Assembly: GCA_964597545.1 (NCBI GenBank)
Contig: CAZQXN010000003.1
Span: 691-64,690, forward strand
Length of the DNA stretch: 64,000 nucleotides
Reading direction: 5' to 3'
DNA from: an uncultured Planctomycetia bacterium
GTDB lineage: Bacteria; Omnitrophota; Gorgyraeia; 1-14-0-20-64-10
Shown: positions 1 through 19,246 of the stretch, piece by piece
Position numbering within the stretch: position 1 is the first letter of the stretch
Layout: each line of letters begins with the position of its first letter
Program-made: the position numbers and the translations under genes
Notes under the pieces: model-generated
Databases searched by the model: none
What the model saw: the letters and a program-made list of their open reading frames with translations, nothing else
Told to the model about the DNA's origin: nothing

Positions 1-417
1 TTCGTTATAAAACAGCTCATCCCGCTTTTGATCTTCCTTGTCCTGTCCGCCTTCCAAGACACAATCCTTATACGCCCACGCTAAGGCAACATCGTTTTTC
101 TCTTTCAAATATTCGCCGTTCGTCATCAAACCAATCTTGTTCTTAAAGCTTGTGAAGGAATCCGGAAGAAACTCTTTGTTGTTCACAAAGGCAATGAACT
201 TATCTTTGTCGAAAACAAGAACATCTTTGCCATTCAGCTTCTTGGCAATAAAGAAATGCTCTTTGGAGGTTTCGTCGGAGATGAGAAGATCGAGCAACTG
301 CTCATCCAGCTTAAACGCTAACTCGGTGAGCTTATTCTTTAACAGATGTCCCTTCTCATCAATAACTCGCTCGTCCTTCTCGAAAATCTTTGTAAGTTCA
401 GTCATTAGATTTTGCAT
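1..417 (-). CDS. mod: Type III restriction-modification Mod (adenine DNA methyltransferase), N-terminal 139 aa only; gene runs off left window edge
   Basis: Reverse-strand translation from ATG at 417 gives MQNLMTELTKIFEKDERVIDEKGHLLKNKLTELAFKLDEQLLDLLISDETSKEHFFIAKKLNGKDVLVFDKDKFIAFVNNKEFLPDSFTSFKNKIGLMTNGEYLKEKNDVALAWAYKDCVLEGGQDKEDQKRDELFYNE. From memory this matches the conserved N-terminal region of Type III Mod (and PglX-like) N6-adenine methylases. It is not in the ORF track because it is truncated by the edge. Confidence 0.6.
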   Translation of the reverse strand, partial: MQNLMTELTKIFEKDERVIDEKGHLLKNKLTELAFKLDEQLLDLLISDETSKEHFFIAKKLNGKDVLVFDKDKFIAFVNNKEFLPDSFTSFKNKIGLMTNGEYLKEKNDVALAWAYKDCVLEGGQDKEDQKRDELFYNE

Positions 418-634
418 ATCGCTTCTTTCCTCTCAAGAATTTCTCTATGTGATACTGCTGCACTTTTTGGGGCTTCGTTTTACCGTTGAGCCACCGGCTA
501 ACAGTTGAGAAGCTGACTCTCAATTCCCTGGCTAAAACACCCTGGGGAATTCTGTTTCGCAGGCGGTACAACTCCAATTGCTTTATCGTCTTGGAAGGAT
601 TAGACTTAGAGGTAACGGTTTGCATAGGTTGCAT
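398..634 (-). CDS. XRE-family helix-turn-helix transcriptional regulator (controller-like, immediately upstream of mod)
   Basis: 78-aa ORF with an HTH motif (LARELRVSFSTVSRWLNGKTKP). It overlaps the mod start by ~20 nt and is a paralog of ORF 8110..8301. Confidence 0.6.
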   Translation of the reverse strand: MQPMQTVTSKSNPSKTIKQLELYRLRNRIPQGVLARELRVSFSTVSRWLNGKTKPQKVQQYHIEKFLRGKKRYAKSND

Positions 635-671
635 TCTATGTCAGAAAGAAAAACTGGGCAAGACCTAAGAC

Positions 672-1835
672 ATGGCACGACAATACAAGCTGAAACAATT
701 CGTAAGATACTTGGATGATGCTCTGATTGCTGAGTATCTTCAGGCAAAGAGCATCCGGCAGGAATTACCCCCCAAGCATGAGAAGGAAACCCCTGCGGAC
801 TACTGGGAGCGTTTCATCAGGAACCTTCCGCAGGGTGCGGTAAATGTTGTAGAAGTCGGTTTTCAGGAGATCAATGAGCTGGCCGATGAGGGGGGTGTCC
901 TATCCCTGATTCAGATTGGGAGCGATCACGGCGTAGATATAGCGGGCGAGATTAAGGACATCGAGAACCCGTACAATCAAGCTTTCCACTGCTACTTGAA
1001 GCACCCGAAGATATTCGAGGAAGCCGCAACTCTCTATTGGATTGAGGAATTGCGCTCCAAGAAAGAACGGACAGGACTGCGGAGCAAAACCGCTAAAGAG
1101 GTCATGGAACGCAAGGGTGCGTTGGCGGAGGCGTTGCGTGAATACTTCATCACGCATGACGGACGGGGAACGCATTGTCAGATTGACGTTCATTCCTTTC
1201 AAGGTCGGGTTTGCTTCGTAGCGTATCCTGAAGACTACGCCAAATCGGATTTCCATTACGAAGGAGAGCAACTCAGGCGTGCCAGCAGAAGGCCTTGTTT
1301 TGAGGTGGTGTTTATTTACTACCCCAATACCGGGCGTCTTGAACTCTGGGCCAAGGGAGGCAAAGATCGGGAAAAAGAACTTTTGGATATTTTCAATCAC
1401 CAGGTCTTGGAAGATAAGAACCCCTTAGACCCCTCGCAAAAGGTGTATGACCTAAACCGGCTCTTTGATGAGAACCTCGTGCTGGCTCCGCAGCTTGAGG
1501 ATCAGATTGAAGATATTCGGGTCAAACAAATGCGGTTTGATTTCAAGTTTGGGGGCAGGCAACGGATCACGCTGGAAATGGATCAGGAAGGGGGCCTGAA
1601 GCCGATGCAGGAACTGATGAAAAAGAAAGGCATCAGTGCCGAGTATTTCAACATCACCCAGGCCCGAATCCACATTAAGTTTCCCGGAAAGGGCAAAAAG
1701 GGGAGTGTTACCCTCCAGATCACCGCTCCAGACAAATGCAACCTCAACAGTTCGCCACTCCATCTGAAGGCCGAAAAATACCTGAAGCTCTGGAACCTTG
1801 AAAATACTCCCGTCAGAGAAACGCAAGCTGTTTGA
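672..1835 (+). CDS. hypothetical protein (387 aa), mobile-element cargo
   Basis: Long ORF on the same strand as, and overlapping by 38 nt, the next ORF. I recognise no motifs. Low GC compared with the host region. Confidence 0.5.
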   Translation: MARQYKLKQFVRYLDDALIAEYLQAKSIRQELPPKHEKETPADYWERFIRNLPQGAVNVVEVGFQEINELADEGGVLSLIQIGSDHGVDIAGEIKDIENPYNQAFHCYLKHPKIFEEAATLYWIEELRSKKERTGLRSKTAKEVMERKGALAEALREYFITHDGRGTHCQIDVHSFQGRVCFVAYPEDYAKSDFHYEGEQLRRASRRPCFEVVFIYYPNTGRLELWAKGGKDREKELLDIFNHQVLEDKNPLDPSQKVYDLNRLFDENLVLAPQLEDQIEDIRVKQMRFDFKFGGRQRITLEMDQEGGLKPMQELMKKKGISAEYFNITQARIHIKFPGKGKKGSVTLQITAPDKCNLNSSPLHLKAEKYLKLWNLENTPVRETQAV

Positions 1836-2799
1836 TGCCCTATCCGCCAGCCATCCCCTCAAGTTCTCGGAGGCTGGCCTTGAGGACGACTTCCCCTCTC
1901 TTGCCCCTGTCCTGAAAAAAGCCGGTTTTCTCAGACCGGATCAACCCGGCCTGGAAACCATTTGCCCCGCCCTCCCCAACAATTGCCTTGTAACCGCTCA
2001 CCCATCCAATGGCCGGTATTATGTTCACTGCGAATGCTCGGAAGAAGTGGGGCTGGTACAGATAGACCCCAAAGAGCTTCGCCGCTTCCGTTTTGATCTG
2101 AACTCCTTTATGAACTGGCTTATATCCGCTTCCACTACTGAGTCTGATCTCAAGGAAATCGAATCGGGCAGACTTTGGCGTCTGGGCGAAAAGAGCCTGA
2201 AAGGAGAAACCGCCAAAGTGTATTTCATCAGGTCAAAAGAGGCGGAAGAAAGCGAAGGCCTGCTCAGAAGTCTCCGAAAAGACGAGACTCCTTTGATTCT
2301 CTTTTGGCTTGGCGAAACGCCTCATGGACGGCAATTCCCGCCGAACCTTGTTTCCCTCCCCGAAATTATAAATATCATCGGCAAAGAGTTCACGTTAGAC
2401 CGAAAACCGCTGGAACATCTGCTTGGAAAACGGCTGGTCGCAACGGTTGGCGGTGATCTTGTTCTTGATAGGGACATTGCCTTGCGCAAGGAAGGCGAGA
2501 AGCGCTTCTTGTTGCTCAAACGAGGGCAGAAAAACGCATTTCAGGTTGAAACCCGCATACGGCCTTTAGACTACCGGATCATCAGACATCTTTATCAGAT
2601 TCGTAGGTATCAAAACCGAGCGAGAAGCCTGGCCGAGATGCGAGATAGAGGCCTAGCCGAACACCGGCCCTCAATCTCCAGAAGCATTAAAACGGTAAAC
2701 GAGTTGTGCGAAAAACACGATGTGCCGTCCATTTTCCACAAATTCCCTGAGCAGAAATGGGGGCTCAATCCATCTCTCGACTGCTGTAACGAGCGTTGA
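1798..2799 (+). CDS. hypothetical protein (333 aa), mobile-element cargo
   Basis: Long ORF translationally coupled to 672..1835. Contains Cys/His clusters (HCECSEE). No known domain recognised. Confidence 0.5.
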   Translation: MKILPSEKRKLFDALSASHPLKFSEAGLEDDFPSLAPVLKKAGFLRPDQPGLETICPALPNNCLVTAHPSNGRYYVHCECSEEVGLVQIDPKELRRFRFDLNSFMNWLISASTTESDLKEIESGRLWRLGEKSLKGETAKVYFIRSKEAEESEGLLRSLRKDETPLILFWLGETPHGRQFPPNLVSLPEIINIIGKEFTLDRKPLEHLLGKRLVATVGGDLVLDRDIALRKEGEKRFLLLKRGQKNAFQVETRIRPLDYRIIRHLYQIRRYQNRARSLAEMRDRGLAEHRPSISRSIKTVNELCEKHDVPSIFHKFPEQKWGLNPSLDCCNER

Positions 2800-2971
2800 C
2801 CGAGCCGTTATCAATACTGCTTAGCTAACGCTCCCCATTCCTTCCACCCAGAAAAACTTCCTCTCGTAACCTACTCATCCCCAACGGGATAGAACGGTCA
2901 AAGAATATTTTTCACCATCCTCTTGACCTCCTTCCTCTGTTAACAGCATTCCTATTATGTAAGTCAAAACA

Positions 2972-3226
2972 ATGGGAATGCAGATGAATAACGACGATTT
3001 TCTTAAAACGCACGACCTGAACATCTCCGCCGTACTGGTGGCCTTCGGCCATCCGCTCGATCATATCGAACGCCAAGACAACGGAAGGGTCTTGTTCTGC
3101 TTCAAGGCCTCCCCCGCCGCAAAGAAAACCGCCCAGAGCTACTGGAAGCAGGAAATCAAGATTAACCCACAGAAACTTTTCGACAGTCTCAAGTTTCTGA
3201 AAAACCGCCTTTACAGCGATTTTTGA
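2972..3226 (+). CDS. DUF5659-like small protein (84 aa) typical of plasmid/phage elements
   Basis: Motifs KTHDLNISAVLVA ... GRVLFCF ... NPQKLFDSLKFLKNRLY resemble the DUF5659 family as I remember it. Confidence 0.45.
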   Translation: MGMQMNNDDFLKTHDLNISAVLVAFGHPLDHIERQDNGRVLFCFKASPAAKKTAQSYWKQEIKINPQKLFDSLKFLKNRLYSDF

Positions 3227-3420
3227 TCATGCTGACCAAGCAGGCGGTGGAGGAATTTCGGGAGATTTACCGGCGGCGGTACGGCGTAAGCCTGCCAGAA
3301 GCCAAAGCCTCGGAAATAGCGGCGAATCTCCTGAACCTCTACCGCTCTGTCTATGGGGAGGCCAATATGAAAAGGAATATGGAAAATGAACAACCTGAAA
3401 GAACAGATCAAAAACAGTAA
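3223..3420 (+). CDS. small hypothetical protein (65 aa)
   Basis: ATGA overlap with the upstream ORF and overlaps the primase start; helical composition. Could be a translationally coupled small gene. Confidence 0.3.
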   Translation: MIMLTKQAVEEFREIYRRRYGVSLPEAKASEIAANLLNLYRSVYGEANMKRNMENEQPERTDQKQ

Positions 3421-5983
3421 TCCGATTGCCGAGATCATCCGGGAAAAAGTATCTCTCCGCCAGATCGGAAACCGGCTTATCGGCCTATGCCCCTTCCACG
3501 CCGACCAAAGCAAACCCAACCTGAACGTCTTTCCTGAGACTGAGAGCTTCTTCTGCTTCGCCTGCGGGGCGGGTGGAGATGTTTTCAGCTTCATCATGCG
3601 GGACAGGAATCTGGGCTTCGCTGAAGCCATGCGGCTGCTCGCAGATCGCAAGGGCATCCCTTTCAGGGCAGAAGAATACGATCCCAAAAAGGAGGAGAAA
3701 CGCCTTTCCGCCGAGGCTGCCTTGCGGGAAACCGCCGTCCTGTACCACAAGGCCCTGCCGCCCGAAGTCAGAGAGTATCTTCGGGGCCGGAAGCTCACGG
3801 ATGAAACGATTGACCAATACCTCATCGGCTTTTGTGATGGCAAAACCGATCTCGGCCCACAAAAGGAAACCCTGATGGAAGCCGGTCTGATTTACGAGAA
3901 CGGCAGGCAGTATTTTGAGGGATTCATCACCTTTCCCCACCTTGTCGGGGGCCGTGTCGTCTACATGAGCGGTCGAGGCTGGCCCGAGAAGGCCCATAAA
4001 AAACTGCCAAAGGAGAAAGTCCCGTTGCTCCATCTCTACAACGAAGATGCTCTGAGGCAATCCAATGTCGTTGTAGCGGAGGGAGAGATTGACACCCTTA
4101 CCCTGTTGCAGAACGGCTTCAACGCTTGCGGCATCCTGGGAGCAAACAGCTTCAAGCAGGAATGGTCGGAAAGATTCGCCGGAATCGAGAAAGTCTACGT
4201 CTCTTTCGATGGAGATGAGGCGGGCAGTGAGGGGAACAGAAAAATAGCCGCTTTCATCGGCCCGCAAGCTCACATCGTGAAGCTGCCGGAAGGGGAGGAC
4301 ATCAACGCCTTTTTCCAGTCTAAAACAGCCGACGATTATCAGAAGCTTCTGGGCGATTCCATCAACCTGATCGAGACGAAGATCAAATCCATCCCTTCCG
4401 ACACCTCTCCCCTGGAACTCACCCGCCTGCTCAACCCCATTGTTGAGGAAATAGCGGGTCTGGAGGACACGGCATACGCAGACGCCCTGCTTCAACATTT
4501 CATCAAGGATCATTTCAATCTCAAGGCCAAAGACATCAAAAGCTACGAGAAAGTTCTGAAAGAAACACGCAAGACAAAGCAGTCTGAAGCGGAGCAAGCC
4601 CCGCCCGCTGAGAAGCTGGATCACTCGCAGCTGCTTGAGGTTTTGAAAACCGAAGAAGGAAGTCTGACGATCAATCCCGCTCAGGACTTCCGGGGCGGGA
4701 CATTCTACTTCACCGTGTTCATCAGACAGGCGCCCTATCTGCTGACCTCCAGCAGGCAACTGATAAGTTTCGAGGAGGCCCCCGACAGCGGCGTCATGCT
4801 CCGAAACGAGGACGTAAGCACGGCAAGATTCTCCGCCAAAGGTGTCGCCGGTTTCCTGGAGCAGTCGAACGAGATCGGAATCCCTGAGCTTTACCGGGAC
4901 ATCCACGCCTACATCAAGCGGTACATCTTCCTGGCTGATACCCGTGTCATTTCCTACCTGTCTCTTTGGATCATGGGAACATACCTTTTCTCGATCTTCC
5001 GATACTACCCCTACATCTGGCTGAACGCAGAAAAAGGGAGCGGAAAAACCCTTCTGATGGAGATTCTGGCCGCAGTCGCTTTCAACGGAGAGCTTGTAAC
5101 CAACCCGACCGAAGCCACCCTGTTTCGGGATGTGGCCTGCAACATGACCACCCTTTTCATAGATGAGGTGGAAAACCTTCGCAAGCAAGACAAGGATGCG
5201 GTTGGGGCCGTCATGGCCGTTCTCAATACCGGCTTCTGCAAGTCCGGGAGCGTCAAGCGGATGGAAAAAACGGGCGAAGGCAAATTTGTCCTCAAGGCAT
5301 TTCCGACCTATTCGCCAAAGGCTTTTGCGGGAATCAACGAAATCAACGACGTTTTGCAGGATAGAACCGTCCGCATCCGGCTCTTGAAGAAGCGGGACGA
5401 CGAGATTACCGAACGCTACAAGGGAACGGATGAGGTGGTGCGGCTTCAAGGGGCAATCCGGGACAAGCTCTATACCTTCGCCTTGATCTATGCGAATCAG
5501 ATTGCCCGGCTCTACAACGGGGAAGCCGGAACGATTGACGGAACCGAACACCTCTCAGGCCGGGAACTGGACATCTGGGAGCCGATCATACTTCTTGCCA
5601 ATGTCGTAGACGGCCTATCAGGAACCAGCGATCTGACGGATGCCATGAAGGCTTTGAGCGGCGAAGCCTTCAAGGAAAAGCAGGCCGACAGCGTAGCCCA
5701 GAACGACACCTACCAGCTTCTTACCGTTACACGGGCCATGCTCTCAGAGCTTGCCCCGATGGACACGGACGGGGACACGCTGGTTTTCAGCTCTGAGGCC
5801 GTATTCAAGTATTTCCAGGAAACCGATGAGTTTGGCTGGCTTCAAAGGAAAAACGCCCTGACCATGCGCCTGAAACGCATGGGGGCGCAGTCTGAGCAGC
5901 GGCGGGAAGGTTCTGGGCGAGTCCGGGTCTACGTCATCAATCGAAAGCAGGTGGAGGATTTATGCGAAAGACACAAAATTTGA
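3386..5983 (+). CDS. DNA primase (CHC2 zinc finger + Toprim) fused to a P-loop NTPase/helicase-like C-terminal domain; replication initiator of the element
   Basis: CHC2 Zn finger CPFHADQSKPNLNVFPETESFFCFACGAGGDVFSF; Toprim VVAEGEIDTLTLL...VSFDGDEAG; Walker A AEKGSGKTLLM and Walker B-like LFIDEV in the C-terminal half. Confidence 0.85.
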   Translation: MNNLKEQIKNSNPIAEIIREKVSLRQIGNRLIGLCPFHADQSKPNLNVFPETESFFCFACGAGGDVFSFIMRDRNLGFAEAMRLLADRKGIPFRAEEYDPKKEEKRLSAEAALRETAVLYHKALPPEVREYLRGRKLTDETIDQYLIGFCDGKTDLGPQKETLMEAGLIYENGRQYFEGFITFPHLVGGRVVYMSGRGWPEKAHKKLPKEKVPLLHLYNEDALRQSNVVVAEGEIDTLTLLQNGFNACGILGANSFKQEWSERFAGIEKVYVSFDGDEAGSEGNRKIAAFIGPQAHIVKLPEGEDINAFFQSKTADDYQKLLGDSINLIETKIKSIPSDTSPLELTRLLNPIVEEIAGLEDTAYADALLQHFIKDHFNLKAKDIKSYEKVLKETRKTKQSEAEQAPPAEKLDHSQLLEVLKTEEGSLTINPAQDFRGGTFYFTVFIRQAPYLLTSSRQLISFEEAPDSGVMLRNEDVSTARFSAKGVAGFLEQSNEIGIPELYRDIHAYIKRYIFLADTRVISYLSLWIMGTYLFSIFRYYPYIWLNAEKGSGKTLLMEILAAVAFNGELVTNPTEATLFRDVACNMTTLFIDEVENLRKQDKDAVGAVMAVLNTGFCKSGSVKRMEKTGEGKFVLKAFPTYSPKAFAGINEINDVLQDRTVRIRLLKKRDDEITERYKGTDEVVRLQGAIRDKLYTFALIYANQIARLYNGEAGTIDGTEHLSGRELDIWEPIILLANVVDGLSGTSDLTDAMKALSGEAFKEKQADSVAQNDTYQLLTVTRAMLSELAPMDTDGDTLVFSSEAVFKYFQETDEFGWLQRKNALTMRLKRMGAQSEQRREGSGRVRVYVINRKQVEDLCERHKI

Positions 5984-6011
5984 CCGGCCCTTGCCCCCTG
6001 CCCTGCTTTGA

Positions 6012-6170
6012 GGCTTTAAGCCGGATACGCCCAACCCCATGGAAGGACAAGCAGTTACGAGGTCTTAAATGTGGATTGAACTTCAAACAGGTGTTTAAGG
6101 CAGCTTTAAGACACCGTATCCGTAAAACACCATTGGAGATACGGAAAGTCCGCCTCAATGTCTTAAAGAT
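6012..6170. promoter_or_regulatory. putative replication origin / iteron region downstream of primase
   Basis: Five copies of CTT(T/A)AAG within 160 bp (ctttaagcc, cttaaatg, tttaagg, ctttaagac, cttaaag). Nested inverted repeats: CTTTAAGACA...TGTCTTAAAG flank CCGTATC...GATACGG. Confidence 0.3.
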
Positions 6171-6188
6171 TCGGAGGGGTATGTAGAG

Positions 6189-6467
6189 ATGGAAAATTTG
6201 CTCGATGCAGTAAAAACCCTGAAGGCCAAGCGGCAGGAAACCAGCCAGCCGTCCCTGGAAACGCTCAAGGCGGCGTACAACGACCTGATCCGACGGCAGA
6301 AGGCAATGGAAGCGTATCTGGATGACAACTCCATCCCGCTTGAGACACGGGAAGGCAAGCTGGACGAGTTTAAGAGCGTTCTACGCCGATTGAATCAACT
6401 GCTGTCCGAAATCCGGGGGATGGGATGCGCCATCACGGACAAGGAGATTTTGAACGGTTTCACATAG
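6189..6467 (+). CDS. hypothetical protein (92 aa)
   Basis: ORF with coiled-coil-like composition, in the element between the primase and downstream hypotheticals. Confidence 0.4.
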   Translation: MENLLDAVKTLKAKRQETSQPSLETLKAAYNDLIRRQKAMEAYLDDNSIPLETREGKLDEFKSVLRRLNQLLSEIRGMGCAITDKEILNGFT

Positions 6468-6539
6468 GAACTGGGTTCACAAAACCCTGTTGATTTAGGA
6501 ATAAACGGACGGGAAGTAAACCTGACAGGAGGATCAAAC

Positions 6540-7400
6540 ATGACAACCGAAAAACAGAGTACGGCCAACCAGCAGAACGCCCAGAAGTCTACCGGCCCGA
6601 AAACGGAAGCAGGCAAGGCCGTATCCAAGCTCAACGCAGCCAAGCACGGTATTTTAAGCGATGCGGTGGTTATCACCAGGGGGGAGGGGCAGGAGCGCAA
6701 GGAGGCCTATTTGCGGCTCTACGACGGCCTGAGAGGCTATTTCAAGCCCTCTGGAGCGATGGAGGAAGCTCTGGTGGAACAAATCACCGTTACCCTGTGG
6801 CGCAAGCGGCGTGTGCTTCGGTTTGAGCTTGGCTGTCTACGCAAACAGCTTGATACCTACCAGCAGGAGGCCAAAGGGGACGAAGATGAGGACTCCTCCT
6901 ACGAAAAACCCAAAACTGCCTACCAAAAGCTGGCGGCAACCCAGGGTCGTTTGGCTCACCATCGGCAGGAGAGAAAGTACCTGCAAGAGGGCTACGACAT
7001 CATGTCGGATGAGGAGGTGGAAAACTGGACGGACAGCTATTTCCGGCTGGCGGAGAAGAAGGATTTCGAGGCGGATGAGCCTTTGGAGGTGAGGAACTGG
7101 CTCAAGGAACAGGGCCTCTCAGAGGAACAAATCCGCAAGGAGATGATCGAAGTTCACGATGAGGTCATCCGCAACATTCAGGCGGAAATCAAGGAGCTGG
7201 AGCCCCAGGCGACCCTGGAGCTTGAGCGGGCGGCCCTGCTTGGCTCCGTGCCTGCTTTCGGCCCTGATCTGGACAAGATCATCCGATACGAGGCTTCTCT
7301 TGACCGCCAGCTTTACAAAGCGGTAAACCAGCTTGAACGGCTCCAGCGGAGCCGGGAGGGGGAAACCCTGCCCCCGCCGGTGGTGCTGGATGCGACCTGA
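6540..7400 (+). CDS. hypothetical protein (286 aa)
   Basis: ORF preceded by a GGAGG RBS (gacaggaggatcaaacATG). Upstream carries the shared TTGATTTAGGAA motif. Confidence 0.5.
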   Translation: MTTEKQSTANQQNAQKSTGPKTEAGKAVSKLNAAKHGILSDAVVITRGEGQERKEAYLRLYDGLRGYFKPSGAMEEALVEQITVTLWRKRRVLRFELGCLRKQLDTYQQEAKGDEDEDSSYEKPKTAYQKLAATQGRLAHHRQERKYLQEGYDIMSDEEVENWTDSYFRLAEKKDFEADEPLEVRNWLKEQGLSEEQIRKEMIEVHDEVIRNIQAEIKELEPQATLELERAALLGSVPAFGPDLDKIIRYEASLDRQLYKAVNQLERLQRSREGETLPPPVVLDAT

Positions 7401-7517
7401 AATGGGTTCGTTTCGCAGAATCACGCTGAACGGTTTGGGCTGTTTTCAAGGGGATCAAGTTCCGTTATTTCCGGTTTTCCCTATTGATTTAGGAAAGAAT
7501 CGGGGGCAAGTGCTTTA

Positions 7518-8069
7518 ATGGGCGGCTGGCGTTGGGACAAGAAAACAACGGTGGAGGAGTGTAAATCCATCAGCACGACTTTCCTGAACAAACACGGCTA
7601 CTTCCGCAACGGCTGGAATGCGGGCGGGATGAAGTGGACACGCAACGGTGAGCAGACAGGCAGTATCAGTTTTACGGTGTCTGTTCAGGATTGGACGGGT
7701 GAGATACGGTTTCAATACACTCAAACAGACAAGCAGACAGGCGAAAAGGAGGAAATGGACTACCCTGCCCGACTCTCCGCCACGCCCTGCCATTTTGGAG
7801 GCAAGCGGTGGTGGTTTATCTGCCCCCTGGTCAAGGATGGGATCGCCTGCAACCGGAGAGCGCTGAGATTGTACCTGGGAGGCGGGAAATACTTCGGATG
7901 CCGCCACTGCTACAATTTGACCTACGAGTCCTGCCAAGAACATGACGCCCGTGTAGACCGGCTGGCGAAAAACCCTGATCTGCTGGCCTCCATGCTCCAA
8001 GGGAATCCGATGGCCTCCCTAGTGGCTTTGAAAGCGGCCTTCAAAGTCCGAAAGGATTTGACGCTATGA
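7518..8069 (+). CDS. hypothetical Cys-rich protein (183 aa), possible zinc-ribbon protein
   Basis: Cys cluster CHFGGKRWWFICP...CNRR...GCRHCYNLTYESC. Upstream carries the TTGATTTAGGAA motif. Confidence 0.45.
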   Translation: MGGWRWDKKTTVEECKSISTTFLNKHGYFRNGWNAGGMKWTRNGEQTGSISFTVSVQDWTGEIRFQYTQTDKQTGEKEEMDYPARLSATPCHFGGKRWWFICPLVKDGIACNRRALRLYLGGGKYFGCRHCYNLTYESCQEHDARVDRLAKNPDLLASMLQGNPMASLVALKAAFKVRKDLTL

Positions 8070-8109
8070 AACGCTTGCAATTCGTTATAAAGCGTTATAA
8101 TATGGTTCC

Positions 8110-8301
8110 ATGCCTGATGATCTCATGGATCAACTCAACACCTATCGGCTGGAAAACAAGCTTACCCAGACCCAACTGGCGGAGAAGCTTGAGGTGACTT
8201 TCCAGACCGTCAACCGCTGGCTGAATCGCCGGATGAGGCCCAGACCCATTCAGGAGTATCAGATCAAGAAGCTGATCTCCGGCAAGCTGAGGGGGAAATA
8301 A
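8110..8301 (+). CDS. XRE-family HTH transcriptional regulator (paralog of 398..634)
   Basis: LTQTQLAEKLEVTFQTVNRWLNRRMRP aligns to the regulator at 398..634 at roughly 50% identity. Confidence 0.6.
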   Translation: MPDDLMDQLNTYRLENKLTQTQLAEKLEVTFQTVNRWLNRRMRPRPIQEYQIKKLISGKLRGK

Positions 8302-8302
8302 C

Positions 8303-8707
8303 ATGGCCTTTAGGTCAGGTGGTTATACACTACTGAACAAAGACAAGGTTCCTCCGGCATGGATTAAGCTCTTTGAGCAAGCATGGGAACGACTTCATAA
8401 TTTCGACGATCTCCACAACAAACAATGCACGGTTGTATTCGCCATTGGAGGAAAGCTCGTTGTTGATTTGGTGATTAAAGAGCGTATTGCCGAATATTGG
8501 AGAGACCTGATCGTCTATAACGTCGAAAAGATGCAGGGCAAAACCAACAAAGAACTTGAGGTCATTTTCCTGGAAGAGCTTGTCCACTGTTTCTTCGATT
8601 CGCTTGACGAAACCGCTGTTTCCCTCTTGGTTGCTTCCCAAATTCCCGGAATCAGCTTCGACCTCAAGACGAGGCAGTATGTAACTCAAACTGGTGGCTC
8701 GAAATGA
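8303..8707 (+). CDS. hypothetical protein (134 aa) upstream of and overlapping the recombinase start
   Basis: ORF sharing ATGA with the recombinase start, so an operon with the HTH and recombinase is likely. Confidence 0.45.
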   Translation: MAFRSGGYTLLNKDKVPPAWIKLFEQAWERLHNFDDLHNKQCTVVFAIGGKLVVDLVIKERIAEYWRDLIVYNVEKMQGKTNKELEVIFLEELVHCFFDSLDETAVSLLVASQIPGISFDLKTRQYVTQTGGSK

Positions 8708-10374
8708 AATTGCCTGAGAACCGCTTCGGGAAACCGGCTGGATTGAAGTACTTCGTCTACGCCCGGAAATCTTCCGAAAGCGAAGATAAGCAGGTGGCCT
8801 CAATCGCTTCCCAAATTGACGAACTCAAGACCGTCGCCAGGCGGGAAGGTCTGAAAATCGTCGAAACCTTCACGGAGGAAAAGTCCGCCAAGGCCCCCGG
8901 TCGGCCCGTCTTTACCCGCATGATCGAGCGTATCCATTCCGGCGAGGCCCAGGGAATCATCTGCTGGAAGCTGGACAGATTGGCCCGAAACCCCATTGAC
9001 GGCGGGACGATCAGCTGGATGCTCCAGCAAGGGGCCATCCAACACATTCAGACGTATCAGAGAAGCTACCTCCCTACCGATAACGTCCTGATGATGAGCG
9101 TTGAGTTTGGCTCTGCTAATCAGTTCATCCTCGATCTGAGCCTGAACACCAAGCGGGGTATCCGTCGAAAAGTCCAAGAGGGCTGGCTGCCTCACAAACC
9201 CCCCATCGGCTATTTGAACAACAAATACAGCGATCCGAACAAACCTCCGATCTACAAAGATCCCGAAAGATTCGATCTGATCAAGAAGATGTGGGGCGTT
9301 CTACTCCAACAACAGCATTCCCTTATGCAGATGAAGCAACTGGCGGATGATTGGGGCTTGAGGTCAACCAACGGCAAGAAGCTGTACCGAAGCAAAATCT
9401 ACGACATTTTCACCAACCCCTTTTACTACGGTGTCATCCGATGGGAAGGCGAAATCTACCCTGCCAAGCATGAGCCGATGATTACCCAAGCGGAGTTTGA
9501 ACAAGCACAGAAAATCCTCTCAGGCAGGTATAACGCAAAACCGCATTACAGAAGTTTTGCCTTCACCGGCCTGATGCGCTGCGGAGAGTGCGGAGCCGGT
9601 ATCACGGCAGAAGCCAAGACGAAGATTCAGAAAAACGGCAACGTCCACCACTACACCTACTACCGATGCTCAAAGGCCATAGACCCGCATTGCTCCCAAA
9701 AGACCCTGCGGGAGGAACGGCTGGAAGAACAAATCCTCGACACCCTGGGGCAGATCACGATACCGGCGGAGTTTCACCAGTGGGCGATCAAACACCTGAA
9801 AGAGGAACAGGCCAACGAGATCGAAGATCGGGAGAAAATATCAAAATCTCAGCAAACCACCCTGGATTCCTGCAAAAGACGGTTGGATGCCCTGCTCTCT
9901 CTGCGCTTGAATGACGAGATTGACGCCCAGGAATTTAAGCGGGCCAAAGCAGAACTGATCTCAGAGAAGAACCGTCTTGAGGAATTGATTGGGGACGCCA
10001 ACTACCGGATGGAGACCTGGCTGGACAGGGCGGAAAAGACCCTGGCGTTTGCCGAGACAGCCAAGGAGCGGTTTGAAGCGGGCGATTTGGAAGCCAAGAA
10101 GGAGATTCTTGCCTGCCTGGGGTCGAACCTGATTTTGAGGAATAGAACCCTTTCCCTCCGACTGAATCCCCCTCTGGAAATGGTGAGCCAGGTCGCACCG
10201 GAGGTACAGGCCCTTCATGAAAGCTTAGAACCTACGCAAGTGCCTGCCACACAAGAAGATTGGGAGGCTCTTTACGCCCAAAATGAGAAATGGGGTGGCC
10301 GAGGTGATGCTGATCGGACCCGGTACATTGATGGTGACGCTATGCACCTTATCATCGGTTTGAGCCATAGCTGA
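8704..10374 (+). CDS. large serine recombinase (resolvase/invertase catalytic domain + recombinase domain + zinc ribbon + coiled coil); element integrase
   Basis: N-terminus FVYARKSSESEDKQ...IICWKLDRLARN is a resolvase-type catalytic domain. Zinc ribbon CGECGAGITAE...YYRCS. 556 aa. Confidence 0.85.
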   Translation: MKLPENRFGKPAGLKYFVYARKSSESEDKQVASIASQIDELKTVARREGLKIVETFTEEKSAKAPGRPVFTRMIERIHSGEAQGIICWKLDRLARNPIDGGTISWMLQQGAIQHIQTYQRSYLPTDNVLMMSVEFGSANQFILDLSLNTKRGIRRKVQEGWLPHKPPIGYLNNKYSDPNKPPIYKDPERFDLIKKMWGVLLQQQHSLMQMKQLADDWGLRSTNGKKLYRSKIYDIFTNPFYYGVIRWEGEIYPAKHEPMITQAEFEQAQKILSGRYNAKPHYRSFAFTGLMRCGECGAGITAEAKTKIQKNGNVHHYTYYRCSKAIDPHCSQKTLREERLEEQILDTLGQITIPAEFHQWAIKHLKEEQANEIEDREKISKSQQTTLDSCKRRLDALLSLRLNDEIDAQEFKRAKAELISEKNRLEELIGDANYRMETWLDRAEKTLAFAETAKERFEAGDLEAKKEILACLGSNLILRNRTLSLRLNPPLEMVSQVAPEVQALHESLEPTQVPATQEDWEALYAQNEKWGGRGDADRTRYIDGDAMHLIIGLSHS

Positions 10375-10425
10375 AACTGCAGCCACCAACATAACAGCCA
10401 CAGACAGCGCAATTAACTTTTTCAT
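10225..10425 (-). pseudogene. 5' fragment (signal peptide + ~25 aa) of a paralog of secreted protein 11077..11643; truncated, overlaps recombinase 3' end on the opposite strand
   Basis: MKKLIALSVAVMLVAAVSAMAQTDDKVHSVTINVPGPISITSAT aligns with LALAGVAAADTDQATHSVSISVPKAPLSITDDTG of the downstream gene. Similarity stops after about 45 aa. Confidence 0.5.
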
Positions 10426-10724
10426 TGTTGCATCTCCTTGATTGATATAACTACCGTTGTTTTTGTTTCACCAAGACCGTCGCCCGATGCGCGGCAGGCC
10501 CCCCGCTCCCCAGGGGAGGCCTCCGGCAACGAGTTCGGGTCGCACCCACTTCACCAAAAAAATAGAAACGATGAAGCCGAAACAGCAACTGCATTCTTAA
10601 AAAACAAAGAACCCCAAGCGCCAGCCCTTCTCTTGAGGGTCCTGATGCTTGGGGTTCTTCGGTCCCCGATCAACCACTGCGGCTCTCCCGAGCTCCTTCT
10701 CGGCTCAACCGCTTTGACAAAACA

Positions 10725-10822
10725 GATTATGGCGTTCGGTAACCGGGCTACCATTATCAGGTCCCTCAGTTTTGCGTCCCTGGGTTTCCCCAGGTTTGCC
10801 TTTATCGCTCACCCAATTGTCA
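10725..10822. repeat. direct repeat copy A (~100 bp) containing hairpin CCTGGGTTTCCCCAGG
   Basis: Core tttgcgtccctgggtttccccaggtttgcctttatcgctcacccaattgtca matches 12193..12243 with a few substitutions. Weaker similarity extends ~50 bp further upstream. Confidence 0.7.
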
Positions 10823-11000
10823 AGTGTTTCTGTGTTGCAACCTAAATATACCCAAAATTCCCAGCTTTGTCAAGGGTTCATAAATATTTTTCTTAAGACT
10901 GCCTAAATATCCGGAATGAGCACGGATTTATATGTAATCTGTTGAGGATAAACAGGTTATGCTAAGTTAATGCAGGGATTTGTGCTGGGGATTGTGCTTG

Positions 11001-11046
11001 AAACCGAAAAAGCCGGCCTCCCTGGGTGCCCAGGGAAACCGGCTTT
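11001..11046 (-). terminator. rho-independent terminator for the minus-strand gene ending at 11077
   Basis: On the minus strand: AAAGCCGG-tttccctgggcacccagggagg-CCGGCTTT followed by TTCGGTTT. GC-rich stem plus U-tract about 30 nt after the stop. Confidence 0.6.
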
Positions 11047-11076
11047 GGTCGTGGGTGCGACCGGTCTTGCTGTCTG

Positions 11077-11643
11077 TTAGCTGTCTTTCAGTGTAACGGT
11101 AAGGTGGGCGGGATGAGCCCCGGCTGCCAGGTCCTGCTCTGCCTCTGCCCGCCAAGAGACAGTCAGGGTGCCGTTCAAAACCCTGGCCTGGTTACCGGTA
11201 GTTACTCCCTTGTCTGCCAAGGGGGTTAACTCATCCTCGATCTCCAGAAATCCCCCTCCAGACTCAATTAAGATGATGTTGCCGGCACTGCCCTCATTGG
11301 TAAAGCTGCCCACATCGGCTTGAACCTCTATATCCTCAAGCTCAGAACCAAGGCTTGCCGAGACCACCCCTTCCAGGGAGCTGGTTGGCAGACCATTGCC
11401 CTTGAGGCGGTAATTGACGACTTGGGTATTGGTCAGGGCGCCTTCAATGGGATCTTCAAAGGTGAGCGTAAAGTCGCCGGTATCATCAGTGATAGAGAGG
11501 GGGGCCTTAGGCACTGAAATGGAGACAGAGTGGGTCGCTTGATCGGTATCGGCAGCTGCCACCCCGGCCAAAGCCAAAAGCAGGCTTAAGGCCAGAGTGG
11601 CCTGCCTTCTTACCCCACCCATCCATCTGGAGGCTTGTTTCAT
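11077..11643 (-). CDS. secreted hypothetical protein (188 aa, signal peptide, Thr/Ser/Gly-rich beta-type composition)
   Basis: Signal peptide LALSLLLALAGVAAA, followed by its own terminator. A paralog fragment lies at 10225..10425. Confidence 0.6.
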   Translation of the reverse strand: MKQASRWMGGVRRQATLALSLLLALAGVAAADTDQATHSVSISVPKAPLSITDDTGDFTLTFEDPIEGALTNTQVVNYRLKGNGLPTSSLEGVVSASLGSELEDIEVQADVGSFTNEGSAGNIILIESGGGFLEIEDELTPLADKGVTTGNQARVLNGTLTVSWRAEAEQDLAAGAHPAHLTVTLKDS

Positions 11644-11764
11644 CGGGGAGCCGCGCCTCCTTTCACGCGAACCTATCCAGCTTACTTCCTCGGGTGCCGT
11701 CGGTCAACAAAAGAACTGTTTGGGGCTATGGGGCAAGCAGGGTCCGAATGGTGGCGCTCGCGCG

Positions 11765-11986
11765 CTAGCCTTCGGTCCCGGTTTTGCGGTGTCCGCTGTG
11801 CGGGTGGTTTGAGGAGGAGTCTGGGTGCTTGTGCTTCATTTCACGCGCTAACCATTGATCCAGAAGGGATTTCTTGAACCGCCACTGCCCGCCCAGCTTC
11901 ATGGCAGGCAGATCTGTCTCATGGATCAAGGTGTACAGCGTCATCTCGTGGATGGCCAAATAGTCGGCCACCTCCTTGATCGTCAT
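11765..11986 (-). CDS. excisionase-family (HTH_17 / MerR-like) DNA-binding protein
   Basis: MTIKEVADYLAIHEMTLYTLIHETDLPAMKLGGQWRFKKSLLDQWL is the classic excisionase-family HTH. I placed the start at the internal Met. The longer track ORF 11765..12136 extends into repeat B. Confidence 0.6.
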   Translation of the reverse strand: MTIKEVADYLAIHEMTLYTLIHETDLPAMKLGGQWRFKKSLLDQWLAREMKHKHPDSSSNHPHSGHRKTGTEG

Positions 11987-12139
11987 GAGATGGTCCTCTG
12001 GGTTATTCTCCAGCGGTACCGGTCCTTTTCCTTCCTCAGGTAGCGACCTATCCTTCTTGTGTGTCACGAAAAACTCCTTCCTGTGTCCCACAAACACAAA
12101 GCGGTCTGCCTCTCCGGTAACTGCCCGGCGAAGCAAACC

Positions 12140-12243
12140 GCGTATGACTCGTTTGGTTTCGGCGGCCGGGCTGCCACGTGAGAGGCCCCATAGCTTTGCG
12201 CCCCTGGGTTTCCCCAGGTTTGCTATTATCGTCCCAATTTGTT
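12140..12243. repeat. direct repeat copy B (~100 bp) containing hairpin CCTGGGTTTCCCCAGG
   Basis: ctttgcgcccctgggtttccccaggtttgctattatcgtcccaatttgtta matches copy A. Lies upstream (minus-strand sense) of the excisionase-like gene. Confidence 0.7.
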
Positions 12244-12355
12244 ATTGCACTTAACGTTCCTAATGCACTTGAAGGATACCTGAAAAACAGTGAAAATACA
12301 AGGCCAGTTGATAAAAATCTTGCAACCTTATGTAGAATAACGGGTTAGGTGCTAG

Positions 12356-13483
12356 CTATTCGTAGAATCGGGGGATCCTGGGGGTCAGCCCCGCCAGGAT
12401 CTCATAGGGGATGGTCCGGGCATGCCTGGCCAGCTCCCCGGTGGTGATCCGCTCCTGTCCCTGGGAGCCGATTAATACTACCTCATCACCAATCCTAACC
12501 TCAGGAATATCAGTGACATCCGCCATGAGGTCCTCCATGGTGATCTTGCCGACTACCGGAGCGCGCCTGCCCTGGATTAGGAGACAAGCCCGGTTAGAGA
12601 GGGAGCGGGGATAGCCGTGCGCATAGCCAATCGGGATGGTGGCCACCCGGGTAGGACGCAAGGCTTTAAAGGTGCCGCCGTAGCTGACAGACTGCCCCGC
12701 AGGGAGGGTCTTCAAGAAGCGCACCTGGGCCTTGAGGGTTAAGGGGGCCTTAAGCTCCAGGGGAAGCCGTCCTTCCCGAATGGGGCTGATCCCATAGAGG
12801 AGGAGACCGGTCCGCACCAGATCCAAGCGGGAGGCCGGAAATCTGACAAGCCCCACGCTGTTGGCCAGATGCCGGATGCCCGCCTCCAAGCCTGCCTGCG
12901 GCATCTTCTCCAGTAAGCGGGAAAAGCGGTTGATCTGGGCTGTGGTGGCCTCGGCACTTTGCCCGGCCATCGCCAAATGAGAGAAGATCCCCTGGAGTTT
13001 AATCCCTGGCAGGGTCGCCAGGTGCCGGGCAAGCTCAAGGGCCTCCTCATGCCAGACTCCATAACGGCCCATGCCGGTGTCCACCTTAAGATGCACATCG
13101 ACCTGGTGCTGGCGCCGGAGCCCCTCTTGGCTTAAGGCCTCGGCAATGGCGGCATCCCCCACCGCAGGGATGAGCCCATTCTCAACCACTCCGGGAACCT
13201 CATCCGGAAGAATCTGACCCAGGACAAGGATCTTTTGGCGCAGTTCATTCCGGCGGAGGGTAATCCCCTCTACGGCATGGGCGACACCCAATTGGTCGGC
13301 ACCTGCGGCAACCAGTGCGCGGGCCACCGGGAGCAAACCGTGGCCATAGGCATTGGCCTTGACCACGGCTAAAACCTGGGCCTTAGAGCCGACCAGCTGG
13401 CGGATCTGGCCAAGGTTATGCTCGAAAGCGCTCAGATCCACTTCGATCCATACCGGACCGCGGGAAATCGTTTTAACTACCAT
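12356..13483 (-). CDS. alr: alanine racemase
   Basis: PLP-binding motif AVVKANAYGHG near the N-terminus; 375 aa; typical length. Confidence 0.9.
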   Translation of the reverse strand: MVVKTISRGPVWIEVDLSAFEHNLGQIRQLVGSKAQVLAVVKANAYGHGLLPVARALVAAGADQLGVAHAVEGITLRRNELRQKILVLGQILPDEVPGVVENGLIPAVGDAAIAEALSQEGLRRQHQVDVHLKVDTGMGRYGVWHEEALELARHLATLPGIKLQGIFSHLAMAGQSAEATTAQINRFSRLLEKMPQAGLEAGIRHLANSVGLVRFPASRLDLVRTGLLLYGISPIREGRLPLELKAPLTLKAQVRFLKTLPAGQSVSYGGTFKALRPTRVATIPIGYAHGYPRSLSNRACLLIQGRRAPVVGKITMEDLMADVTDIPEVRIGDEVVLIGSQGQERITTGELARHARTIPYEILAGLTPRIPRFYE

Positions 13484-14148
13484 CCTGTGATGTTGCTCTC
13501 CTGAGAATAGAGATATTTTGGCACGAGGGCAGCCGTTTGCTCAAGGGCATTACCCGGCCAAGCCGATGCAGCCAATCGGCAAAGGTGATCGGCCCGGGGC
13601 ACCCATTGATCCTGCTCTGCGAGCTGCCAGTCTTGGGCTTGTTTCTCGGCGGCCAGCTGGTCATAGCGCTTCAAGCCGTCACCCACGAGGATGGCCGGCT
13701 CTGGGGCAAGCTTTAAGGCATCCTCTGGAAGGAGGAGCTGGTCCTCGATCAAGCGTCGGCCCTCAGAGGAAAAACGGGCGGTATAGACCTTGCCCTTTCG
13801 CGCATCCAAGAAGGGCTGAATGACGCCTAAAGCGGCTTGGACATTTTGAGCAATCACTTCCAGGCTCGAGACCGGTGCGACCGGTTTTTTCAGCGCCCAA
13901 GAAAGGGTTTTCGCCGTGGTCACCCCTACGCGCAAACCGGTAAAGGAACCTGGGCCGATGGAAACGGCAAAGCCGTCTATTTGCGCCAGCGTCAACCCGG
14001 CCTGTGTCAGGACCCGCTCAATGAGATCAGCCAACAGATCTGAGGCCCGGCCGGTCCCGGTCTCCTGCAGGAAACCCTTGGGGCGGCCCTCTTCGGCAAC
14101 CGCTACTGAGAAGGTGGGGCTTGAGGTTTCGATCCCAAGAAGGATCAT
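13477..14148 (-). CDS. tsaB: tRNA threonylcarbamoyladenosine biosynthesis protein TsaB
   Basis: N-terminus MILLGIETSSPTFSVAV with the YeaZ-like fold signature. Adjacent to tsaE. Confidence 0.8.
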   Translation of the reverse strand: MILLGIETSSPTFSVAVAEEGRPKGFLQETGTGRASDLLADLIERVLTQAGLTLAQIDGFAVSIGPGSFTGLRVGVTTAKTLSWALKKPVAPVSSLEVIAQNVQAALGVIQPFLDARKGKVYTARFSSEGRRLIEDQLLLPEDALKLAPEPAILVGDGLKRYDQLAAEKQAQDWQLAEQDQWVPRADHLCRLAASAWPGNALEQTAALVPKYLYSQESNITGW

Positions 14149-14229
14149 GAGGATTCTCGCCGGAGTTCACCCTCGGCTACGACCGAGGACGAGAGCCTGC
14201 CCTCGGCCTGACCGAGGGATGACAAATTC

Positions 14230-14685
14230 TTAATTCCAGCTGCGCGCTTCATAGCTTTTCCCGTGGGGCACTAGGGTAAGGGTCCGGGTTTCGGTGCCGG
14301 TCACCTCAAAGCAAATCTCTAGGAACTCCGCGGGCAACACCTCGGGGATCCGGTTGGCCCACTCAATGACGGTCACCGCCTCCTGCTCGTAATGTTCCTC
14401 CAAACCCACGGTTTCGGCCTCGGGCATGCCCTCCAACCGAAACAGATCCGCGTGCACCAAGGGGATGCGACCACGGTAGAGGCGAATCAACACAAAGGAG
14501 GGGCTTGCCACTGAACGGGCATCGGCCCCCAAACCCTCGGCCAATCCCTGAACAAAGGTGGTTTTGCCGGCCCCCATCTGTCCGGTCAGGGCGATGACAT
14601 CCCGCGCCTGGAGCTTCTTGCCCAGGGCGCAGGCATATTGCCGGGTTTGATCGTCAGAGTCAGAGTAAAAGGGTGTTGGCTTCAT
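14230..14685 (-). CDS. tsaE: tRNA threonylcarbamoyladenosine biosynthesis ATPase TsaE
   Basis: P-loop GQMGAGKTTFVQG, SPSFVL and HADLFRL motifs. Start placed at internal Met (MKPTPF), giving a 4-nt overlap with the thiL stop. Confidence 0.8.
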   Translation of the reverse strand: MKPTPFYSDSDDQTRQYACALGKKLQARDVIALTGQMGAGKTTFVQGLAEGLGADARSVASPSFVLIRLYRGRIPLVHADLFRLEGMPEAETVGLEEHYEQEAVTVIEWANRIPEVLPAEFLEICFEVTGTETRTLTLVPHGKSYEARSWN

Positions 14686-16789: not shown

Positions 16790-16792
16790 CGG

Positions 16793-18247: not shown

Positions 18248-18304
18248 GGCAGAGTAGATTTCTTTTACAGACAAGATGCATGGTTACGAATCATTTAGTA
18301 TACT

Positions 18305-19186: not shown

Positions 19187-19246
19187 AGCAGATCCCCAAT
19201 CAAGTTGGGGATGACACCCCTTTCCCATGCGGAGGATAACCTCTCT

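Follow-up and report, generated by a model that had tools for sequence, protein, structure and literature searches.

What occupies the left end of the stretch of DNA analysed here, and why does a recombinase gene there run, on the opposite strand, into the start of a gene for a secreted protein? The stretch (the window) comprises 64,000 nucleotides of contig CAZQXN010000003.1 (positions 691 to 64,690 of the forward strand) from assembly GCA_964597545.1 of an uncultured bacterium of the Omnitrophota. Here, we report that window positions 1 to ~10295 make up the right-hand part (10.3 kb) of an integrated mobile element, non-conjugative and from an undescribed family, and we propose that its large serine recombinase (LSR) inserted it into a riboswitch-controlled host gene, away from its usual tRNA target. 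A first-pass annotation, made from the sequence alone, had described the region as a mobile element of lower G+C content (GC) than the rest of the window, and both halves of this description hold. GC is 0.519 in 1-10298 versus 0.581 in 10449-64000, and the lowest GC of any 10.3-kb host window is at least 0.575. The serine recombinase, the primase with its P-loop NTPase, the DUF5659-like protein and the paired XRE regulators were all confirmed by Pfam, and the NTPase by its Walker A and B motifs. No virion or conjugation genes were recognised among the open reading frames (ORFs) of the element in the window. Relatives of the element span about 10-16 kb.

The LSR gene (8704-10374, plus strand) encodes 556 aa with the Resolvase, Recombinase and Zn_ribbon_recom domains of Pfam. 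The catalytic domain covers residues 17-160 (PF00239, E=3.4e-20), and PF07508 (E=2.8e-11) and PF13408 (E=2.1e-13) also match. In 40 homologs, S23 (within YARKSS) and more than 90 other positions never vary. A check for coiled-coil features gave a weak bZIP-like match at residues 355-429 (E=0.004). By its predicted domains, the protein is a large serine integrase; over its full length it is less than 27% identical to any deposited phage or plasmid integrase. Conservation stops at ...N-x-K-W-G, i.e., at N527 and W530, both among 120 homologs and in a 40-sequence alignment, which delimits a native part of residues 1-531, ending at about 10296. The remaining 26-residue tail, GRGDADRTRYIDGDAMHLIIGLSHS (residues 532-556, 10297-10374), occurs in none of the 120 LSR homologs. 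Because this tail is unique to the window copy and conservation ends at N527/W530, it is read from DNA that does not belong to the element, in agreement with the earlier suggestion that the tail derives from the host.

The right junction, with the core region TGGGGTGG of the right attachment site (attR), was located at 10291..10298, close to the position near 10290 that had been predicted. The window here reads AAATGGGGTGG followed directly by CCGAGG, and blastn homology to the colinear relative L001 (relatives carry locus numbers with the prefix L) extends to the boundary between these two strings, at 10298. Relatives that are integrated next to a tRNA-His gene have aaaTGGGGTG in common and then diverge, each into its own tRNA. 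The crossover in the window most likely fell within TGGGG.

Beyond the junction lies the beginning of a host gene. As had been noted from the ORFs, the recombinase gene overlaps a reading frame on the opposite strand: an ORF on the minus strand (10225-10425) is in codon phase with the LSR tail, and its first ~43 codons (10297..10425), comprising a signal peptide and the start of the mature protein, resemble the neighbouring gene for a 188-aa secreted protein; the ORF as mechanically called extends to 10225 through element DNA. The signal peptide MKKLIALSVAVMLVAAVSAMA is followed by QTDDKVHSVTINVPGPISIT, which matches the mature start of the 188-aa neighbour (BLASTP E=3e-5). A profile hidden Markov model (HMM) built from 9 external homologs only matched the fragment with E=0.0048 at HMM positions 11-50, second best of 1505 six-frame window ORFs after the intact paralog (next best, E=3.7). 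An AAGGAG ribosome-binding site (RBS; 10434-10439) stands 8 nt from the fragment's ATG at 10425. The leader of the interrupted gene (10598..10873, minus strand) consists of a sigma70-like promoter (10845-10873) with matches at 11 of 12 consensus positions, a riboswitch aptamer of the cyclic-di-GMP class c-di-GMP-I-GGC (10734-10809; RF03167, 64.1 bits versus a gathering score of 59, E=1.6e-13), and a terminator hairpin with T-run (10598-10659) between the aptamer and the RBS. Because promoter, riboswitch, hairpin and RBS lead into the ATG, these predicted signals mark the fragment as part of a genuine host gene that is regulated through a leader of its own.

The intact neighbouring unit (11009..12233, minus strand) contains a second c-di-GMP-I-GGC aptamer (12157-12233; RF03167, 56.4 bits, just below the gathering score, E=2.7e-11), an HTH_17 gene (11765-12136; E=5e-16), the 188-aa secreted-protein paralog (11077-11643) and a terminator (11009-11046). 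The two riboswitch copies form the 49-nt D1 direct repeats, both upstream of same-strand units with a member of the secreted family. What had been called an array of secreted-protein genes comes down to this one intact copy and the fragment, and the window has no others. Only 9 clusters of this rare family occur in a set of 5.8 billion proteins; among these, a profile of fragment and paralog detected no intact ortholog of the fragment, and no cluster matched its N-terminus.

The nearest genomes suggest that a gene once followed the first leader there as well. Window positions 10449-21687 have 92%-identical counterparts in five JGI contigs, L044-L048 (by blastn, window 10449-15587 corresponds to L044 11199-6023 at 91.6% identity). 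Synteny with them starts at 10449..10453, and all DNA to the left is absent from these contigs. They carry alr, the HTH_17 gene, the paralog and both riboswitches, and 28 nt past the second leader they reach the stop of a convergent histidine-kinase (HisKA_7TM) gene, without the element and without the interrupted gene. The riboswitch and leader that are orphaned in this way (L044 10839-10914, and the same in L045-L047) suggest that these genomes lost a gene that once followed them; the orphan leader may be due to such a loss, or it may regulate the kinase from the antisense strand. In L044-L048, no tRNA gene lies closer than ~9 kb to the locus. The HMM match of the fragment, its dedicated riboswitch leader and the orphan riboswitch of the relatives together uphold the proposal that the element sits within a secreted-protein gene; that the LSR itself made this junction is what we infer.

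Homologs of the LSR number in the thousands in metagenomes from Omnitrophota, Scalindua, Elusimicrobia and other uncultured lineages. The four closest, 84%, 81%, 73% and 67% identical, come from contigs that preserve the gene order. Over window positions 438-10298, L001 is colinear at 77-82% nucleotide identity and with identical ORF lengths; past this point it enters a partial tRNA like that of the tRNA-His relatives. ARAGORN identified a minus-strand tRNA-His that abuts the LSR in L041, L042, L043, L049, L050, L051 and L135, and all eight closest relatives abut tRNA-His, counting the partial tRNA of L001. The Trp codon TGG at the end of the native LSR is the reverse complement of the CCA end of the tRNA, and the GG(T) after it is complementary to the discriminator and to the first base of the acceptor. 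Judging from these loci, the normal target of the window subfamily is the 3' end of tRNA-His, and the overlap of TGG with CCA would leave the tRNA intact upon normal integration. Of 87 loci from across the family, 43 directly adjoin a tRNA gene on the opposite strand (His, Ala, Asn, Trp, Gln, Tyr, Ser or Arg), and the homologs that end in WGG or WGE before the stop, or in tails such as ERRDSNPQP, are products of read-through into the antisense tRNA strand. The window, by comparison, contains no tRNA gene, and its LSR does not abut tRNA-His.

At ~21 family loci that have no tRNA, the LSR extends past the W with a conserved ..[VI]R[TN].. tail, and such free-form tails read WGRWLDDVRTCL, LHGLDDVRTCL, RGLNKVRTWIM and similar. 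L067 is circularly permuted, with the LSR, a convergent restriction-modification (R-M) pair 5 bp past the LSR stop, and then the core genes p387-p333-DUF5659-p65. L068, a 10,614-bp contig with a 127-bp terminal overlap, an intact tail and 53% LSR identity, is likely a complete circular free form of a family element; nine other tested ORFs of this contig had no Pfam match. Joining the element arm at attR (the P arm) to the one at the left attachment site, attL (the P' arm), restored an in-frame tail in three of the integrated relatives, the only ones for which an attL/attR pair is shown: L043 (tRNA-His, 67% LSR identity), where the reconstructed tail reads WGGRWLSLFRNACMVAA before the stop, L086 (tRNA-Asn), where it ends in LLRLVKEVRTCLV, and L100 (tRNA-Ser), where it ends in ILRGVLNDIRTYLITNINI, the latter two likewise followed by a stop. 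The attL and attR of L043 have only AATGGGG in common, and the dyad of its host site (attB), GGGTTCGAA on the left and TTGAACCC on the right, is centred on the GG of TGGGG, which together place the crossover within TGGGG. The tail Arg is encoded now by CGA, now by AGA/AGG, a pattern suggestive of selection on the tail protein and not on the DNA site alone. In these comparisons, the attachment site of the free element (attP) lies inside the last LSR codons, and integration removes the conserved tail.

Two further candidates were set aside. The candidate attL of L042/L135 gives just a 2-aa tail (WGLR before the stop) in a degraded element and was not used as evidence, and L076 was left out of the count of restored tails as its attL tail motif is one nucleotide out of frame. 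In this tRNA-Ala-targeting relative (L076 ~3160-3230), attL carries ELDDVRTYF, out of frame with the P arm by that one nucleotide, and the host-side arm resembles the P arm (aaaaata.aa.ct), perhaps as a remnant of an older tandem insertion. The elements of L042 and L135 are reduced and no longer have the primase; the gene immediately preceding their LSR is tyrosine-recombinase-like (PF00589; L042 8832-9944, L135 8844-9956), as it is in L067 (157-1278).

We favour the following reading of the window copy. The element would integrate and excise via its own LSR, with attP in the last LSR codons. In the free circle, the ORF would run past ...K-W-G into the P' arm and end in a tail of approximately G-R-W-L-D-D-V-R-T-C-L; integration would cut within TGGGG and swap this tail for whatever the target encodes. 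In this copy, the P arm would have been joined to codon ~44 of the riboswitch-controlled secreted-protein gene, with inactivation of that gene, through LSR-catalysed insertion at a secondary (pseudo-attB) site that is similar, in its bases next to the core, to the acceptor end of tRNA-His. Taken as a whole, the combination of element, family attachment biology and LSR-catalysed insertion at a secondary site is in our view the best explanation, with a probability of about 0.62. The host-side sequence TGGCCGAGG fits the degenerate tRNA-His consensus TGRSYRABG at 9/9 positions. Scored with a position weight matrix for the 25-nt host-side arm (tRNA-His B', built from 11 natural arms), the host-side arm of the window ranks in the top 0.23% of host positions. 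LSR-mediated integration at pseudo-attB sites is documented for PhiBT1 (PMC5937489). If the site is truly a secondary one, an absent or occupied primary attB (a host tRNA-His that would encode ...CCACCCCA) would explain its use.

One further regularity was observed in the arms. Counted from the T of TGG, the tRNA-His arms (11 loci) have a TTCGAACC-like motif at +17..+24, and for the P' arms of L054 and L068 its position is +22..+29, a shift of 5 bp; the window arm has ATCGGACC at the P'-type register +22..+29 (10313-10320), and the motif in the P' arm of L043 stands 3 nt further out. Such a shift brings to mind the half-site model of serine integrases, for which a 5-bp figure was reportedly given by Rutherford et al. 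in 2013. P-type and B-type half-sites of serine integrases differ in domain organisation (PMC5499577).

Several observations weigh against insertion by the LSR at this very site. The host-side arm scores -3.5 bits, as against 31-40 bits for natural arms, and 242 other host positions score equally well or better. The two codons next to the junction encode S-A, at a place where all 10 of 10 full-length family members have an acidic pair (D-D, E-D or E-E), and similarity to the secreted family ends with ...SIT, ~5-8 nt to the right of the core. Given the missing acidic pair, the gene may have been broken a few bases to the right of the core. The fragment region (10299-10448, 150 bp) has a GC of 0.467, below the host value of 0.581, although its leader is host-like. 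HMM positions 50-190 of the family and a P'-type tail found no match elsewhere in the window; attL and the 3' remainder of the gene lie outside it. An empty site was found in no retrievable genome, and synteny breaks at 10449, not at 10298. The first-pass annotation had held that its reading should fall if no intact copy of the gene could be reconstructed from a related genome, and, taken literally, this is how the comparison came out: none was recovered, and the nearest genomes are without the gene. The leader and riboswitch evidence shows, however, that the gene was there.

Some of these points would be accommodated by a rearrangement after canonical integration at tRNA-His, in which DNA was deleted or inverted, whether by the LSR acting on attR and a weak site or by illegitimate recombination, with fusion of the attachment core to the secreted-protein gene; attL would then still adjoin a tRNA-His flank. 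Such a history would agree with the use of tRNA-His by all close relatives, with the four bases past the core (TGGC), which equal the tRNA-His acceptor bases of L049, L066 and L073, with the early end of family similarity and the missing acidic pair, and with the deletion-prone nature of the locus in the nearest relatives, where the gene is gone and the orphan riboswitch is left. We nevertheless consider it unlikely, although less so than the explanations that follow. tRNA-His is usually single-copy and essential, and its loss should be lethal. No tRNA remnant is seen beyond the possible 4 nt, no tRNA lies within ~9 kb of the locus in relatives, and the breakpoint coincides within a few bases with the attachment core, as LSR chemistry predicts. 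Moreover, sites of the attL x attR type are poor LSR substrates without a recombination directionality factor (PMC5499577). A larger composite island, with a non-native 150-bp fragment and a right boundary at 10449, e.g., owing to an older insertion that brought the secreted-protein gene and was later entered by the LSR element, would explain why synteny with L044-L048 starts where it does, as well as the low GC of the fragment and the lack of an intact ortholog in 5.8 billion proteins. To us this is a distinctly less probable history: the sole other window member of the very rare fragment family (9 clusters) is the adjacent host gene, the host leader is ~92% conserved in the relatives and of the same class as the leader of the neighbouring operon, and from the conserved leader to the ATG it is 28 nt only.

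The source being a metagenome-assembled contig, an assembly chimera that wrongly joins the element to the host locus also has to be weighed, but the join falls exactly at the attachment core of the family, in a functionally coherent arrangement, and no long repeat is common to the element end and the host, so that we regard an artefact as improbable. Least credible of all is a native, full-length 556-aa LSR with a chance ORF on its antisense strand and a junction elsewhere, the host-side arm being the native P' arm. The tail does have R-T at the same positions as the free-form tails of L054 and L068, and ATCGGACC sits at the P'-type register. Yet the tail is present in 0 of 120 homologs, the native tails of relatives read WG(G)RWL..., and the antisense ORF comes with an RBS, a signal peptide, a significant family HMM match and a dedicated riboswitch leader. 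With host DNA resuming 150 bp on, a P' arm could not reach the left end of the element; on the basis of this and of the unique tail, the host-side arm was ruled out as a native P' arm.

LSR-catalysed insertion at a secondary site stays our preferred reading. A more tentative idea concerns the family as a whole, and we consider it less likely than not. The integrase ORF could be a sensor of the integration state, since an LSR with the conserved tail would be made only from the free circle and integrated copies would encode tail-less or randomly tailed enzymes. If so, the tail would tune LSR stability, directionality or expression, the overlap of tRNA CCA end and Trp codon would be an evolved device that keeps both the tRNA and the reading frame, and the window copy would be a natural off-target event that shows the minimal accepted sequence.

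The remainder of the element follows the conserved order of its relatives. The core reads p387-p333-DUF5659-p65-primase/NTPase-p74-p92-p286-p183-XRE2-(variable gene)-LSR and has two cargo positions, one at the far left for R-M genes and a second between XRE2 and LSR. The far-left slot would hold an XRE-controlled R-M system, which is of Type III in this copy. Of the Type III Mod gene, the N-terminal 139 codons are present (1..417, minus strand; PF12564 E=6e-19, PADLOC MTase_III E=1e-26); only the N-terminal domain is inside the window, as the reading frame runs off its left edge. The gene had been recorded as truncated; the Mod N-terminus stands, but the cut is the edge of the window and not the result of decay or mutation. 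A scan of genome contigs with this N-terminus gave relatives at 75% identity or less. The 75%-identical Mod in L002 has 634 aa and is followed by a ResIII gene (ResIII E=8e-27). Because of this order in L002, and because the cargo of L067 abuts P', the left end of the element probably lies ~3-5 kb beyond the window edge, past Mod and Res.

XRE1 (398..634, minus strand; HTH_3 E=7e-6) lies upstream of Mod and overlaps its start. In three unrelated loci, L002, L004 and L005, an XRE1 homolog directly precedes Mod, and in L001 and L051 homologs precede other methyltransferases. Because it accompanies Mod in unrelated loci, XRE1 is the likely controller of the R-M cargo. XRE1 and XRE2 are paralogs, 45% identical and both HTH_3 proteins. 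The R-M genes to the left of XRE1/p387 differ between relatives, with an HNH protein and a C5 methyltransferase in L001, a 628-aa N6_N4 methyltransferase in L041, and an EcoO109I-like enzyme with a methyltransferase in L051. Presumably, this cargo benefits or stabilises the element. In another metagenome-assembled genome, a partly related element (L003 6200-9812) lies upstream of a 75%-identical Type III Mod; it has the C-terminal half of the primase at 53% identity and homologs of p183 and p286, and nearby are a more divergent LSR (27%) and a tRNA-His.

All core genes from p387 onwards are on the plus strand. p387 (672-1835; 79% identical in L001) matches phrog_37634, a PHROG of unknown function, with E=1.5e-23, and p333 (1798-2799) is 70% identical in L001. 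Neither has a match in Pfam, NCBIfam or PDB, and p387 has none among deposited phages or plasmids. They are followed by the DUF5659 protein (2972-3226; E=4.6e-9) and by p65 (3223-3420; 65 aa), which in the window is 5 kb from the LSR. In more than 20 distant family members, p65 homologs are found immediately upstream of the LSR (L053, L056, L061-L064, L068, L076, L097, L099, L102, L103, L108, L111, L112, L114, L116, L117, L120 and L130, among others). Because of this conserved adjacency, p65 is a candidate recombination directionality factor or regulator.

The 865-aa protein encoded at 3386-5983 combines a DnaG-type primase (CHC2 zinc ribbon and Toprim; PF01807 E=4.9e-23, PF13155 E=5.8e-9) with a P-loop NTPase. 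Its match to TIGR01391 (E=1.6e-52, 178.7 bits) is below the cutoff of 283.6, and the primase is therefore not an equivalog of chromosomal DnaG; it also matches a PHROG DNA primase (E=1e-52). In the C-terminal half, Walker A (AEKGSGKT) is at residue 548 (5027-5050) and Walker B (LFIDE) at residue 590 (5153-5167), and DUF3631 matches below threshold only. The primase/NTPase presumably replicates the excised circle. The next four genes, p74 (5962-6186), p92 (6189-6467), p286 (6540-7400) and the Cys-rich p183 (7518-8069), are colinear with and of the same length as those in L001; the N-terminus of p286, as well as p183, is kept in many distant relatives. XRE2 (8110-8301; HTH_3 E=2e-8) precedes p134 (8303-8707; GC 0.454), which sits in the second variable slot and for which no homolog family was found; some relatives have an SLFN_AlbA_2 gene at this position (L041 9059-9979, L049 3476-4393). 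Because they are tightly spaced or overlapping, XRE2, p134 and LSR may form one operon. The first-pass annotation had also listed many ORFs of unknown function, and p387, p333, p65, p74, p92, p286, p183 and p134 indeed have no informative match in Pfam, NCBIfam, PADLOC or PDB. Apart from primase and LSR, sequence searches of NCBIfam, PADLOC and PDB returned no functional match for the core proteins, and single-sequence AlphaFold models of p387 and p183 were unusable (predicted local distance difference test scores of 38 and 41).

For the host, the consequence is that a foreign element of at least 10.3 kb with a predicted R-M system has knocked out one of two riboswitch-controlled secreted-protein genes. 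The element is in itself an ordinary kind of mobile element, here at an atypical site, and what sets it apart are the features of its family. This family is undescribed and widespread, none of its members is close to any deposited phage or plasmid, and IMG/VR holds no close relative of the window element. Serine integrase attachment sites are short and have a small common core, and their P/P' half-sites differ from B/B' (PMC5499577); the basic picture of serine-integrase chemistry is unchanged by our findings. Of interest for the study and engineering of serine integrases are the use of tRNA 3' ends as targets across subfamilies that use different tRNAs, the attP in the coding sequence of the integrase itself, with a conserved tail that integration removes, and a natural insertion at a weakly matching secondary site. 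Our literature searches turned up neither an account of this family nor one of a serine integrase whose own ORF contains attP, which is absence of evidence only.

Among known systems, the phage-type LSRs (phiC31, Bxb1, A118/LI Int, SPbeta SprA, PhiBT1) are alike in their resolvase, recombinase and zinc-ribbon domains and may also have a coiled-coil-like segment in common with it. The LSR of the window differs from them in its identity of less than 27%, its tRNA 3'-terminal target, the attP within the integrase ORF and the lack of virion genes. Satellites of the P4-like and phage-inducible chromosomal island (PICI)-like types are likewise small integrative elements with an integrase, XRE-type regulators and a primase-helicase and without virion genes; the element described here has instead a serine-type integrase and no close relatives in phage or IMG/VR collections. 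Genes for helper hijacking or redirection of packaging were not matched in PHROG, Pfam or PADLOC, and six core proteins are without any annotation. Most alike in lifestyle is the staphylococcal cassette chromosome (SCC), with an LSR, its own replication genes, variable cargo and insertion at the 3' end of a housekeeping gene. SCCmec is a non-conjugative LSR cassette with replication genes and variable defence or other cargo that does not destroy its target gene. CcrB, CcrA and CcrC are among the NCBIfam matches of our LSR, which misses the Ccr equivalog cutoffs (CcrB, 77.6 bits versus a cutoff of 900); further differences are the target, tRNA-His and not rlmH, the single LSR, the DnaG-type primase and the unrelated core genes.

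Two phage systems come closest in single features of the attachment site. The phiRSM-type filamentous phages of Ralstonia, attributed to Askora et al., reportedly use a small serine recombinase that targets the 3' end of tRNA-Ser. They resemble the present family in the targeting of a tRNA 3' end by a serine recombinase and differ from it in that theirs is a small resolvase-like enzyme without recombinase and zinc-ribbon domains, in another kind of element and with an attachment site outside the ORF. In the integration-dependent immunity of mycobacteriophages BPs and Brujita, which is said to have been described by Broussard et al. in 2013, attP lies inside the coding sequence of the repressor. 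There, as here, attP is part of a coding sequence, and the C-termini of the free and the integrated form differ; whereas BPs and Brujita combine a repressor gene with a tyrosine integrase, in the present family it is the integrase's own gene that carries the site.

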